From Escherichia phage Qbeta: a stretch of 4,219 nt of DNA. The number at the start of each line of letters is the position of its first letter. Positions within the stretch are counted from its first letter, which is position 1. The stretch lies in sequence record FJ483844.1. The stretch is one strand, 5' to 3'. Below the pieces are notes generated by a model that saw nothing but the letters and a program-made list of their open reading frames with translations, had not been told where the DNA came from and did no database searches. The position numbers and the translations under genes were made by a program. This document shows, piece by piece, positions 62 through 4,219 of the stretch.

Positions 62-1324
62 ATGCCTAAATTACCGCGTGGTCTGCGTTTCGGAGCCGAT
101 AATGAAATTCTTAATGATTTTCAGGAGCTCTGGTTTCCAGATCTCTTTATCGAATCTTCCGACACGCACCCGTGGTACACACTGAAAGGTCGTGTGTTGA
201 ACGCTCATTTAGATGATCGTCTACCTAATGTAGGCGGTCGTCAAATAAGGCGTACTCCGCACCGTGCTACCGTCCCGATTGCCTCTTCAGGCCTTCGTCC
301 GGTAACAACCGTTCAGTATGATCCTACAGCACTGTCGTTCTTATTGAACGCCCGTGTTGATTGGGATTTCGGTGATGGTGATAGTGCGGACCTTGTCATT
401 AATGACTTTTTGTTCCGCACTTTCGCACCTAAGGAGTTCGATTTCTCGAACTCCTTGGCTCCTCGCTATACCCAGGCCTTCTCCGCTTTTAATGCCAAGT
501 ATGGCACTATGATCGGCGAAGGGCTCGAGACTATAAAATATCTCGGGCTTTTACTGCGCAGACTGCGTGAGGGTTTCCGTGCTGTTAAGCACGGCGATTT
601 ACGCGCTCTTCGTAGGGTTATCCAGTCTTACCACAAGGGTAAATGGAAACCGACTACTGCTGGTAATCTCTGGCTTGAATTTCGTTATGGCCTTATGCCC
701 CTCTTCTATGACATCAGAGATGTCATGTTAGATTGGCAGAATCGTCACGATAAGATTCAACGCCTCCTTCGGTTTTCTGTCGGTCATGGCGAGGATTATG
801 TTGTCGAATTTGACAACTTATATCCCGCCGTAGCTTACTTTAAACTGAAAGGTGAGATTACTCTCGAACGCCGTCATCGTCATGGTATATCTTACGCTAA
901 TCGCGAAGGATATGCTGTTTTCGATAACGGTTCCCTTCGGCCTGTGTCCGATTGGAAGGAGCTTGCCACCGCGTTCATCAATCCTCAAGAAGTTGCCTGG
1001 GAGTTAACTCCCTACAGCTTTGTTGTTGATTGGTTTTTGAACGTCGGTGACATACTCGCTCAACAAGGTCAACTATATCATAATATCGATATTGTAGACG
1101 GCTTCGACAGACGTGACATACGGTTCAAATCGTTTACCATAAAAGGTGAGCGAAATGGACAGCCTGTTAACGTTTCTGCGGACCTGTCTGCTGTTGATAC
1201 ATTTTATAGTCGACTCCATACGAGCAGTATTCCGTTCGCTACACTAGATCTCGATACTACCTTTAGTTCGTTTAAACACGTTCTCGATAGTATCTTTTTA
1301 TTAACCCAACGCATTAAGCGCTGA
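62..1324 (+). CDS. A2: Maturation protein A2 (420 aa); in Qbeta-type phages also the lysis effector that inhibits MurA
   Basis: ORF track 62..1324, ATG start, TGA stop at 1322-1324. N-terminus MPKLPRGLRFGADNEILNDFQELWFPD and overall length match what I recall of the Qbeta A2 protein; first cistron after the 5-prime leader, as in all ssRNA coliphages. The lysis function is established knowledge for Qbeta A2, not shown by the sequence. Confidence 0.95.
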   Translation: MPKLPRGLRFGADNEILNDFQELWFPDLFIESSDTHPWYTLKGRVLNAHLDDRLPNVGGRQIRRTPHRATVPIASSGLRPVTTVQYDPTALSFLLNARVDWDFGDGDSADLVINDFLFRTFAPKEFDFSNSLAPRYTQAFSAFNAKYGTMIGEGLETIKYLGLLLRRLREGFRAVKHGDLRALRRVIQSYHKGKWKPTTAGNLWLEFRYGLMPLFYDIRDVMLDWQNRHDKIQRLLRFSVGHGEDYVVEFDNLYPAVAYFKLKGEITLERRHRHGISYANREGYAVFDNGSLRPVSDWKELATAFINPQEVAWELTPYSFVVDWFLNVGDILAQQGQLYHNIDIVDGFDRRDIRFKSFTIKGERNGQPVNVSADLSAVDTFYSRLHTSSIPFATLDLDTTFSSFKHVLDSIFLLTQRIKR

Positions 1325-1345: not shown

Positions 1346-1747
1346 ATGGCAAAATTAGAGACTGTTACTTTAAGTAACATTGGGAAAGATGGACAAAAAA
1401 CTCTGAACCTCAACCCACGTGGGGTAAATCCCACCAACGGTGTTGCCTCGCTTTCAGAAGCGGGTGCAGTTCCTGCATTGGAGAAGCGTGTTACCATTTC
1501 GGTATCTCAGCCTTCTCGTAATCGTAAGAACTACAAGGTTCAGGTTAAAATCCAAAACCCAACCGCTTGTTCTGCAAACGGTTCTTGTGACCCATCCGTT
1601 ACTCGCCAGGCATATGCTGACGTGACTTTTTCGTTCACGCAGTATAGTACCGATGAGGAACGAGCTTTTGTTCGTACAGAGCTTGCTGCTCTGCTCGCTG
1701 ATCCTCTGCTGATCGATGCTATCGATCAGCTGAACCCAGCGTATTGA
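1346..1747 (+). CDS. cp: Major coat (capsid) protein, 133 codons including the initiator Met
   Basis: ATG at 1346-1348 (the track starts 2 codons earlier at a TTG, 1340). Product MAKLETVTL...IDAIDQLNPAY ends at TGA 1745-1747. Sequence is near-identical to Qbeta coat as recalled, with a few substitutions. Second cistron, as expected. Confidence 0.95.
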   Translation: MAKLETVTLSNIGKDGQKTLNLNPRGVNPTNGVASLSEAGAVPALEKRVTISVSQPSRNRKNYKVQVKIQNPTACSANGSCDPSVTRQAYADVTFSFTQYSTDEERAFVRTELAALLADPLLIDAIDQLNPAY

Positions 1748-2335
1748 ACGTTGCTCATTGCCGGTGGTGGCTCAGGGGAAAACCCCGATCCGGTTGATCC
1801 GGATCCACCGATTGATCCGCCGCCAGGGTCAGGTAGCTATACCTGTCCTTTCGCAATTTGGTCATTAGAGGAGGTTTATGAGCCTCCTACCAGTGACCGA
1901 CCGTGGCCTATCTATTATGCTGTCGAACTCCAACCTCGTGATTTTGATGTTGCCCTTGATGATCTCTTGGGTAACACTAAATGGCGAGACTGGGATTCAC
2001 GGCTTAGTTATACCACGTTCCGCGGTTGCCGTGGCAATGGTTATATTGACCTTGATGCGACTTATCTTGCTACTGACCAAGCGATGCTTGATCAGAAGTA
2101 CGATATTCGCACGGGCAAGAAACCCGGTGCCTTCGGTAACATCGAACAATTCATCTATCTTAAGTCGATAAATGCCTATTGTTCTCTTAGCGATATTGCG
2201 GCCTATCACGCCGATGGTGTGATAGTTGGCTTTTGGCGCGATCCATCTAGTGGTGGTGCCATACCGTTTGACTTCACAGAGTTTGATAAGACTAAATGTC
2301 CAATTCAAGCTGTGATAGTCGTTCCTCGTGCTTAG
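1346..2335 (+). CDS. A1: A1 read-through minor capsid protein (coat plus C-terminal extension, 329 aa) made by suppression of the coat UGA
   Basis: Seen in sequence: the frame stays open from the coat UGA (1745-1747) for 195 further codons to a tandem stop TAG-TAA (2333-2338). The extension begins TLLIAGGGSGENPDPVDPDPPIDPPPG, matching the Qbeta A1 read-through domain as recalled. UGA read-through by tRNA-Trp in Qbeta is established knowledge. Confidence 0.9.
1745..1747 (+). promoter_or_regulatory. Leaky UGA stop codon of the coat gene (programmed read-through site)
   Basis: TGA at 1745-1747 followed by A (context UGA-A), then an in-frame 195-codon extension with no intervening start or ribosome binding site. 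Established mechanism in Qbeta; efficiency cannot be judged from sequence. Confidence 0.85.
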
Positions 2336-2340
2336 TAACT

Positions 2341-2345
2341 AAGGA
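2341..2345 (+). promoter_or_regulatory. Shine-Dalgarno sequence of the replicase cistron
   Basis: Seen in sequence: AAGGA at 2341-2345, 8 nt upstream of the replicase ATG at 2354. It overlaps the upstream in-frame ATG at 2345, which argues against 2345 as the true start. Confidence 0.7.
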
Positions 2346-2349
2346 TGAA

Positions 2350-2369
2350 ATGCATGTCTAAGACAGCAT
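2350..2369 (+). promoter_or_regulatory. Coat-protein translational operator hairpin enclosing the replicase start codon
   Basis: Seen in sequence: ATGCATGTCTAAGACAGCAT folds into an 8-bp stem (A2350-T2369, T2351-A2368, G2352-C2367, C2353-G2366, T2355-A2365, G2356-C2364, T2357-A2363, C2358-G2362) with bulged A2354 and a 3-nt loop TAA (2359-2361). The replicase AUG (2354-2356) lies within the stem. This matches the established Qbeta operator architecture (8-bp stem, bulged A, 3-nt loop). Confidence 0.8.
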
Positions 2370-4123
2370 CCTCGCGTAACTCTCTCAGCGCACAATTGCG
2401 CCGAGCCGCGAACACAAGAATTGAGGTCGAAGGTAACCTCGCACTTTCCATTGCCAACGATTTAATGTTGGCTTATGGTCAATCGCCATTTAATTCCGAG
2501 TCCGAGTGTATTTCACTCGGTCCGAAATTCGACGAAACCCCGGACAACTTTAGGATAAATTATCTTAAAGCCGAGATCATGTCGAAGTATGACGATTTCA
2601 GCCTAGGTATTGATACCGAAGCTGCTGCATGGGAGAAGTTCCTAGCAGCAGAGGCTGAATGTGCTTTAACGAACGCTCGTCTCTATAGGCCTAACTACAG
2701 TGAGGATTTCAATTTCTCACTGGGCGAGTCATGTATTCACATGGCTCGTAGAAAAATAGTTAAGCTAATAGGAGACGCGCCGTCCGTTGAGGGTATGCTG
2801 CGTCACTGCCGTTTTTCCGGTGGTGCTACAACAACGAATAACCGTTCATACGGTCATCCGTCCTTCAAGTTTGCGCTTCCACAAGCGTGTACGCCTCGGG
2901 CTTTGAAGTATGTTCTGGCTCTTAGAGCCTCTACGCACTTCGATATCAGAGTTTCTGATATTAGCCCTTTTAATAAAGCAGTTACTGTACCAAAGAACAG
3001 TAAAACCGATCGCTGTATCGCTATCGAACCCGGTTGGAATATGTTTTTTCAACTAGGTATCGGTGGCATCTTACGCGACCGGCTGCGTTGCTGGGGTATC
3101 GATCTGAATGATCAGACGATAAACCAGCGTCGCGCTCACGAAGGCTCTGTTACTAATAACTTAGCAACAGTTGATCTCTCAGCGGCAAGCGATTCTATAT
3201 CTCTTGCTCTCTGCGAGCTCTTGTTGCCTCCAGGGTGGTTTGAAGTCCTTATGGACCTTCGATCACCTAAGGGGCGATTGCCTAACGGTAGTGTCGTTAC
3301 TTATGAGAAGATTTCTTCCATGGGTAACGGTTACACATTCGAACTCGAGTCGCTTATTTTTGCTTCTCTTGCTCGTTCCGTTTGTGAGATACTGGACTTA
3401 GACTCATCTGAGGTCACTGTCTACGGAGACGACATTATTTTGCCGTCCTGTGCAGTCCCTGCTCTTCAGGAAGTCTTCAAGTATGTTGGTTTTACTACCA
3501 ATACTAAAAAGACCTTTTCCGAAGGGCCGTTCAGAGAGTCGTGCGGTAAGCACTACTATTCTGGCGTAGATGTTACTCCCTTTTACATACGCCGCCGCAT
3601 AGTGAGTCCTGCCGATTTAATATTGGTTTTGAATAACCTATATCGGTGGGCCACGATTGACGGCGTATGGGATCCTAGGGCCCATTCCGTGTACCTCAAG
3701 TATCGTAAGTTGCTGCCTAAACAGCTGCAGCGTAATACTATACCTGATGGTTACGGTGATGGCGCCCTCGTCGGATCGGTCCTGATCAATCCATTCGCGA
3801 AAAACCGCGGGTGGATCCGGTATGTACCGGTGATCATTGACCACACAAGGGACCGAGAGCGCACTGAGCCGGGGTCATATCTCTATGATCTCTTCTCTCG
3901 CTGTTTCTCGGAAAGTAACGATGGGTTGCCCCTAAGGGGTCCGTCGAGTTGCGATTCTATATATCGGTTTGCCGTTGACCAACTTATATGTAAGAGCAAT
4001 CCTACAAAAGTAAGCAGATCTACTGGGAAATTTGATATACAGTATATCGCGTGCAGTAGCCGTGTTCTGGCACCCTACGGGGTTTTCCAGGGCACGAAGG
4101 TTATGCCTCTACACGAGGCATAA
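2354..4123 (+). CDS. rep: RNA-dependent RNA polymerase, replicase beta subunit (589 aa)
   Basis: ATG at 2354 (track starts 3 codons earlier at ATG 2345), stop TAA at 4121-4123. N-terminus MSKTASSRNSLSAQLRRAANTRIEVEG matches Qbeta replicase as recalled. Canonical RdRp catalytic YGDD motif encoded at 3422-3433; motif-A-like VDLSAASD upstream. Third cistron as expected. Confidence 0.95.
   Translation: MSKTASSRNSLSAQLRRAANTRIEVEGNLALSIANDLMLAYGQSPFNSESECISLGPKFDETPDNFRINYLKAEIMSKYDDFSLGIDTEAAAWEKFLAAEAECALTNARLYRPNYSEDFNFSLGESCIHMARRKIVKLIGDAPSVEGMLRHCRFSGGATTTNNRSYGHPSFKFALPQACTPRALKYVLALRASTHFDIRVSDISPFNKAVTVPKNSKTDRCIAIEPGWNMFFQLGIGGILRDRLRCWGIDLNDQTINQRRAHEGSVTNNLATVDLSAASDSISLALCELLLPPGWFEVLMDLRSPKGRLPNGSVVTYEKISSMGNGYTFELESLIFASLARSVCEILDLDSSEVTVYGDDIILPSCAVPALQEVFKYVGFTTNTKKTFSEGPFRESCGKHYYSGVDVTPFYIRRRIVSPADLILVLNNLYRWATIDGVWDPRAHSVYLKYRKLLPKQLQRNTIPDGYGDGALVGSVLINPFAKNRGWIRYVPVIIDHTRDRERTEPGSYLYDLFSRCFSESNDGLPLRGPSSCDSIYRFAVDQLICKSNPTKVSRSTGKFDIQYIACSSRVLAPYGVFQGTKVMPLHEA
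2975..2981 (+). other. Internal partner site of a candidate long-range pseudoknot with the 3-prime-terminal hairpin loop
   Basis: Seen in sequence: AAAGCAG (2975-2981) is the exact reverse complement of CTGCTTT (4197-4203) in the loop of the 3-prime-terminal hairpin. A possible eighth pair is U2974-G4204 (G-U). Qbeta has a known long-range pseudoknot between its 3-prime hairpin loop and a site roughly 1.2 kb upstream that is needed for replication. Confidence 0.65.
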
Positions 4124-4185: not shown

Positions 4186-4213
4186 GAGAGAGGGATCTGC
4201 TTTGCCCTCTCTC
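4186..4213 (+). other. 3-prime-terminal hairpin (9-bp GAGAGAGGG/CCCTCTCTC stem, 10-nt loop), followed by single-stranded CTCCCA tail
   Basis: Seen in sequence: GAGAGAGGG (4186-4194) pairs perfectly with CCCTCTCTC (4205-4213); loop ATCTGCTTTG (4195-4204) contains the 7 nt complementary to 2975-2981. Confidence 0.7.
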
Positions 4214-4219
4214 CTCCCA

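Follow-up and report, generated by a model that had tools for sequence, protein, structure and literature searches.

A conserved in-frame extension downstream of the coat gene UGA in a Qβ-group coliphage genome

Gene content and organization of the genome

The 4219-nt stretch of DNA analyzed here (hereafter, the window) represents the complete genome of an ssRNA coliphage from the Qβ group (species Qubevirus durum, family Fiersviridae). Its alignment with Qβ strain VK (FJ483843) extends over 100% of the length, with 93.3% identity, and 92-93% identity was found to other full-length Qβ isolates, namely BR12, TW18, HL4-9 and the laboratory strain Anc(P1). Both the 5' terminus (GGGGGACCCCCC..., positions 1-30) and the 3' terminus (...CUCUCCUCCCA, positions 4195-4219) are complete, as they are in VK, BR12, TW18 and HL4-9; in the 5' leader, the window reads GGGGGTCTCC where these four strains have GGGGGTCACC. 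The genes are arranged in the order maturation (A2), coat/A1 and replicase, without a separate lysis gene (Table 1), as in the annotated Qβ records. The records of VK, BR12, TW18, HL4-9 and Anc(P1) each annotate the maturation protein A2, the coat protein, the read-through protein A1 and the replicase, and in the Qβ isolates the coat and read-through CDS pair is annotated at homologous coordinates, within the same gene order as in the window. A counterpart of the coat CDS is annotated in every relative that was compared.

Three of the window proteins have exact-sequence matches in GenBank under Escherichia phage Qbeta: A2 corresponds to ACT66745.1, the coat protein to ACT66746.1, which is titled 'capsid protein [Escherichia phage Qbeta]', and the replicase to ACT66748.1. 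In the sibling records FJ483840-43, the accessions ACT66729-44 form blocks of four that follow the order maturation, capsid, read-through and replicase; judged from this accession numbering, ACT66747.1 would be the annotated read-through protein of the present strain.

The replicase ORF is listed from ATG 2345, and the relatives annotate the equivalent of ATG 2354, which is preceded by an AAGGA core 8-9 nt upstream. The sequence AUGCAUGUCUAAGACAGCAU around the replicase start (window 2345-2356) is identical to that of laboratory Qβ and corresponds to the coat-protein translational operator hairpin. The 90%-identity cluster that contains the Qβ replicase (window 2354-4120) also includes many 283-aa bacterial EF-Ts proteins. 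Their presence is a database artefact rather than biology; they were likely chained to the replicase via the engineered replicase/EF-Ts/EF-Tu fusions made for crystallography.

Table 1. Coordinates of the genes, domains and RNA elements in the window
Feature	Position	Strand	Basis and remarks
Phage_mat-A domain	62-1324	+	Pfam, far above curated cut-off
Levi_coat domain (PF01819)	1346-1747	+	Pfam, E=4.1e-63, full length
Coat protein CDS, the N-terminal part common to coat and A1	1346-1744	+	133 codons including the initiator Met; PF01819
Leaky stop and recoding site, UGA with next base A (UGA-A)	1745-1748	+	Read directly; comparative
Gly/Pro/Asp/Ser-rich linker, TLLIAGGGSGENPDPVDPDPPIDPPPGSGS	1748-1837	+	Translation; relatives
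Read-through extension, the C-terminal domain of A1	1748-2332	+	195 codons; PF16814; PDB 3RLC/3RLK; dN/dS
Read-through domain (PF16814)	1748-2335	+	Pfam, E=1.7e-95
RNA hairpin RT4	1870-1889	+	Loop AUGA (1878-1881) pairs with the replicase-gene loop UCAU (2846-2849; R22)
Tandem terminators TAG-TAA ending A1	2333-2338	+	TAG 2333-2335, TAA 2336-2338; read directly
RNA_replicase_B domain	2354-4123	+	Pfam, far above curated cut-off

Anatomy and identity of the read-through extension

The layout of the coat/A1 region can be read directly from the sequence, and it bears out to the base the outline given in an earlier note on this DNA: the coat gene ends at a single UGA with A as the next base, and the same frame stays open for another 195 codons, up to the TAG-TAA tandem. 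The linker rich in Gly, Pro and Asp that was described there as opening the extension is likewise present, with G, P, D or S accounting for 70% of the first 30 residues. With Trp at the position of the UGA, A1 is predicted to comprise 329 aa (36.1 kDa), compared with 14.3 kDa for the coat protein, and the peptide spanning the junction would read ...DQLNPAY-W-TLLIAGGGSGENPDPV.... Given the base composition, 195 stop-free codons would arise by chance with a probability of 6.6e-5; only 7 of 100,000 shuffles of the region lacked an in-frame stop, and this stretch has 6 and 24 stops in its two remaining frames.

The extension is an orthologue of the corresponding part of Qβ A1. It matches the 'Read-through domain' family of Pfam over positions 5-182 of the 182-position profile, with a score of 318 bits against a cut-off of 27 (E-value in Table 1), and its residues 12-195 match the crystallised read-through domain of Qβ A1 (PDB 3RLC/3RLK) with E=1.4e-121 and approximately 93% identity. 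Beyond the 93% identical extension protein, Qβ A1 and the window share the genome position, the UGA-A context, the extension length of 195 codons, the TAG-TAA terminators and the assignment to the species Q. durum. A search of IMG/VR for distant relatives of the domain returned only four loci, namely two Qβ-like contigs and the SP and FI genomes, and no wider family in that database.

Conservation of the frame across Qubevirus

The comparison covered 17 genomes, the window and 16 relatives, with eleven from Q. durum, among them M11 and MX1 as divergent members, and six from Q. faecium (SP, FI, NL95 and field strains). Two environmental sequences from IMG/VR (L017 and L018), with 92% nucleotide identity in the extension, were added, for 19 sequences in all. 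In 17 of the 17 genomes, from both species, the coat gene ends in UGA, and no further in-frame stop separates the coat AUG from the A1 terminator; the two metagenomic contigs likewise keep UGA-A, the open frame and TAG-TAA. The conservation of the post-UGA frame across Qubevirus genomes, which had been proposed as the way to check the read-through assignment, is thus complete in this set.

The immediate surroundings of the two stops differ between the species. Every Q. durum genome has A as the base after the UGA and every Q. faecium genome has G, so that a following A is not an absolute requirement in the genus. The TAGTAA tandem is kept in all 11 other Q. durum genomes and in both IMG/VR contigs, and Q. 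faecium has a single TAA. The length of the extension is 195-199 codons among the 17 genomes, and all indels are whole codons that are confined to the linker or to one surface segment. Within Q. durum, the A1 linker (window 1781-1810) is a hotspot of in-frame length polymorphism, with extensions of 195, 196, 197 or 198 codons, the one in the window being the shortest form. The Q. durum genomes share the linker motif PPPG(T/S)G, which takes the form PPGGTG or PPDGTG in Q. faecium.

At the protein level, the extension is under purifying selection, with dN/dS values of 0.07-0.21 relative to the window (Nei-Gojobori), which are similar to those of the coat gene (0.05-0.29). Third positions dominate among the substitutions relative to VK (5, 3 and 29 at the first, second and third codon positions, respectively). 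The identity of the extension to that of the window is 73-75% in M11 and MX1 and drops to 41-47% in Q. faecium; nevertheless, 59 residues are invariant across both species. Among these are L2 and L3 of the extension, so that protein conservation starts directly after the UGA.

The alternative that the post-UGA frame is a chance or relic ORF, unexpressed or non-functional in this strain, has nothing in its favor beyond the formal point that the frame lies behind a stop codon. Such an ORF would have to combine a chance probability of about 7e-5 with the low dN/dS, the invariant residues shared by two species at such limited identity, indels that respect codon boundaries throughout and a homologous domain whose crystal structure has been solved. 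The probability of this alternative can be considered practically negligible.

Independent initiation within the extension

The program-made list of ORFs includes the extension as a TTG-initiated ORF (1751-2335), as the earlier note pointed out, and the frame contains five ATG, GTG or TTG codons altogether, at positions 1751, 1967, 2084, 2219 and 2312. Taken at face value, these features would be compatible with the extension being a separate gene with its own initiation, for example at TTG 1751, rather than a product of read-through. However, most Qβ strains have CTG at codon 1751, and GCG or GCA is found there in M11, MX1 and Q. faecium, although the protein itself is conserved. The conservation that begins immediately after the UGA and the in-frame arrangement with the coat gene that is retained in 19 of the 19 sequences also argue against an independent start, as does published protein chemistry, which shows that Qβ A1 shares the N-terminus of the coat protein (Weiner & Weber 1971, as cited in PMC6526423). 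None of the five start-type codons is preceded by a Shine-Dalgarno-like core at a distance of 4-12 nt; the same scan scored none at the true coat start (1346) either, so that this result is weak evidence against internal initiation.

Altogether, initiation within the extension appears extremely improbable, and the frame conservation and the lack of conservation of TTG 1751 agree with the original view that the extension reflects a recoding event and is not a separate gene. The accompanying statement that it has no start codon or ribosome binding site of its own holds in substance, given that TTG 1751 is unconserved and that no Shine-Dalgarno core was detected, although five in-frame start-type codons do exist. 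The recoding can be recognized from the raw sequence, whereas mechanical ORF calling misdescribes the extension as a TTG-initiated gene.

RNA structure around the coat stop

The 131-nt region around the stop (1700-1830) folds far better than shuffled controls (z=-5.6), and the minimum free energy structure of this strain places the UGA in the loop of a 6-bp hairpin. These features could point to decoding of the UGA as selenocysteine via a SECIS element or to read-through driven by a downstream RNA stimulator, either a hairpin or a pseudoknot. In the consensus fold of the 17 genomes, however, the stop lies in an unpaired stretch together with about 25 nt of flanking sequence on each side, and the sole covarying local helix lies upstream, at 1708-1730. 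The 6-bp hairpin is not conserved, as mismatches are apparent in the alignment for both Qb_Anc and VK, and its 5' arm, which is directly upstream of the stop, would have to be unwound in the ribosome when the stop occupies the A site. Comparison of the whole window with Rfam, including the SECIS families, gave no match at E<=1, and no SECIS hairpin was detected directly downstream of the UGA, where the consensus fold is unpaired. Strong folding is expected anyhow for highly structured phage genomic RNA (PMC8880383), and the z-score of the single-sequence fold can be attributed to this general genome structure together with the conserved upstream hairpin rather than to a read-through element. 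Furthermore, a plain UGA reporter shows 2-4% read-through in wild-type E. coli, which is near the level reported for Qβ (PMC10570021), so that no stimulator is required. Accordingly, we regard selenocysteine insertion or a dedicated downstream stimulator as very improbable. The term 'programmed', which was applied to this read-through in the earlier note, is justified with regard to the conserved identity of the stop codon and of the following base but not in the sense of a dedicated stimulatory RNA element, none of which was found.

The hairpin around the UGA (1737-1753; CAGCGU/ACGUUG, with the UGA in a 5-nt loop) is perfect in this strain only. It is completed by a synonymous ACA to ACG change in the first codon of the extension (1748-1750); Qb_Anc has one mismatch and VK has two. 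Because the 5' arm must be unwound in the ribosome during decoding of the stop, this hairpin is probably irrelevant to read-through.

The upstream helix is a conserved 10-bp hairpin, GCUGAUCGAU-GCU-AUCGAUCAGC, that closes 15 nt upstream of the UGA and shows compensatory changes across the genus, from G:C to U:A in 8 genomes and from A:U to G:C in 4. At this distance, it cannot act on a ribosome that has paused at the stop; it may be a coat-binding or packaging stem-loop of the genomic RNA.

Mechanism and function of the read-through

The results converge on the interpretation that the coat/A1 gene of the window undergoes UGA read-through of the coat cistron to give a minor capsid protein of the Qβ A1 type. 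Nothing that was found contradicts this interpretation, which we consider almost certain. The central claim of the earlier note, that read-through of the UGA yields a second capsid protein from the coat cistron, is thereby upheld by the orthology, the matches to PF16814 and 3RLC/3RLK and the conservation of the frame. The amino acid inserted at the UGA, the efficiency of read-through, the incorporation of A1 into virions and its essentiality in this strain would follow published work on Qβ and E. coli, by analogy with which they are described here.

Under this interpretation, most ribosomes initiating at the coat AUG (1346) would terminate at the UGA (1745-1747) through the action of RF2 and yield the major coat protein of 133 codons. 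In a small minority of cases, Trp-tRNA(Trp) would decode the UGA as a near-cognate codon in competition with RF2. Two features are expected to favor this outcome, namely that UGA is the leakiest stop codon and that it is followed by A. Translation would then run on in frame for 195 codons, up to TAG-TAA, to produce the 329-aa, 36-kDa A1, in which the coat domain is predicted to be joined through a flexible Gly/Pro-rich linker to a globular read-through domain. A few copies of A1 would take the place of coat subunits in the capsid and are likely needed for the particles to be infectious.

In Qβ, Trp is misincorporated at a low level at the coat UGA, which is thereby suppressed, and A1 accounts for approximately 3-7% of the capsid protein (PMC6526423; Weiner & Weber 1971 there). 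In E. coli, tRNA-Trp misreads UGA with particular ease when the next base is A (Engelberg-Kulka 1981, as cited in PMC5289835), and Trp-tRNA(Trp) competes with RF2 (PMC10570021). Because the plain UGA reporter mentioned above already reads through, only the choice of the stop codon and its immediate context appear to be needed, and it is this context that is conserved. With regard to function, A1 is required for infectious Qβ particles (Hofstetter et al. 1974, as cited in PMC13114773) and is essential for infection (PMC12469967). The mutations Q195R and T222N in the extension increase the efficiency of entry and decrease the burst size (PMC12469967); the window has the wild-type Q and T at A1 sites 195 and 222.

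Relation to known read-through systems

The read-through described here is already known and annotated in Qβ; the window carries an ordinary orthologue and reveals no new biology. The interest of the locus stems from the standing of Qβ A1 as the founding example of natural stop-codon read-through in bacteria and from the use of A1 in Qβ peptide display, which rests on the fusion of peptides to the A1 C-terminus.

The differences from laboratory Qβ Anc(P1) are at the strain level only and amount to about 8% of the nucleotides and 14 amino acids in the extension. One of the differing segments is in the linker, which reads GENPDPVDPD in the window and GSKPDPVIPD in Anc(P1). Strain-specific tuning of the coat:A1 ratio, whereby the hairpin around the UGA and these linker substitutions would alter the level of read-through or the display of A1 relative to laboratory Qβ, seems very unlikely.

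M11 and MX1 within Q. durum, as well as SP, FI and NL95 within Q. faecium, have the same UGA coat stop and in-frame extension, and their A1 proteins belong to the same domain family. A1 of Q. faecium differs from that of the window in the G after the UGA, the single TAA terminator and the extension of 197-199 codons.

The logic of the system, in which a leaky stop holds the extended protein at a fixed, low ratio to the normal one, is shared with the read-through of eukaryotic RNA viruses, such as the CP-RTD of luteoviruses and gag-pol of MuLV. Read-through in eukaryotic viruses commonly requires downstream RNA structures or long-range elements together with eRF1, the downstream pseudoknot of MuLV gag-pol being an example, and the protein domains of the respective extensions are presumably unrelated to the A1 domain. 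The window differs from these systems in that no stimulatory structure was detected and in that termination is performed by the bacterial RF2 (PMC10570021).

A kissing loop within the extension

The extension also encompasses the RNA hairpin RT4. In the RNA model derived from cryo-EM of the Qβ virion, the RT4 loop (1876-ACGA-1879) kisses a loop in the replicase gene (2844-UCGU-2847; PMC8880383). The corresponding loops of the window, AUGA and UCAU, differ from the ACGA and UCGU of laboratory Qβ by a compensatory double change from C:G to U:A. Both substitutions are synonymous and occur at third codon positions, with Tyr UAC changed to UAU in A1 and Ser UCG changed to UCA in the replicase. The AUGA/UCAU combination is common to the window, VK, BR12 and M11, whereas ACGA/UCGU is kept in TW18, HL4-9, the Fr* isolates, GIII_C and Anc(P1); the RT4 and R22 loops of MX1 and Q. 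faecium look different. At the level of sequence comparison, this covariation supports the RT4-R22 tertiary contact of the cryo-EM model. Because the RT4 loop would kiss a loop in the replicase gene, the read-through region appears to act as structural RNA as well, and the combination of a coding and a structural role could constrain the evolution of A1.

Two ORFs of about 100 codons that overlap the extension (1878-2171 on the plus strand and 1997-2308 on the minus strand) were considered as potential genes and rejected as chance ORFs. Their starts and open frames are lost outside the closest strains, and both contain stops in M11, MX1 and Q. faecium. The plus-strand ORF, which is in the +1 frame and consists of 97 codons, is also interrupted in TW18. 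The ATG at 1878, which reads ACG in most Qβ strains, and the spurious +1-frame ORF that begins with it result from the C to U change in the kissing loop.
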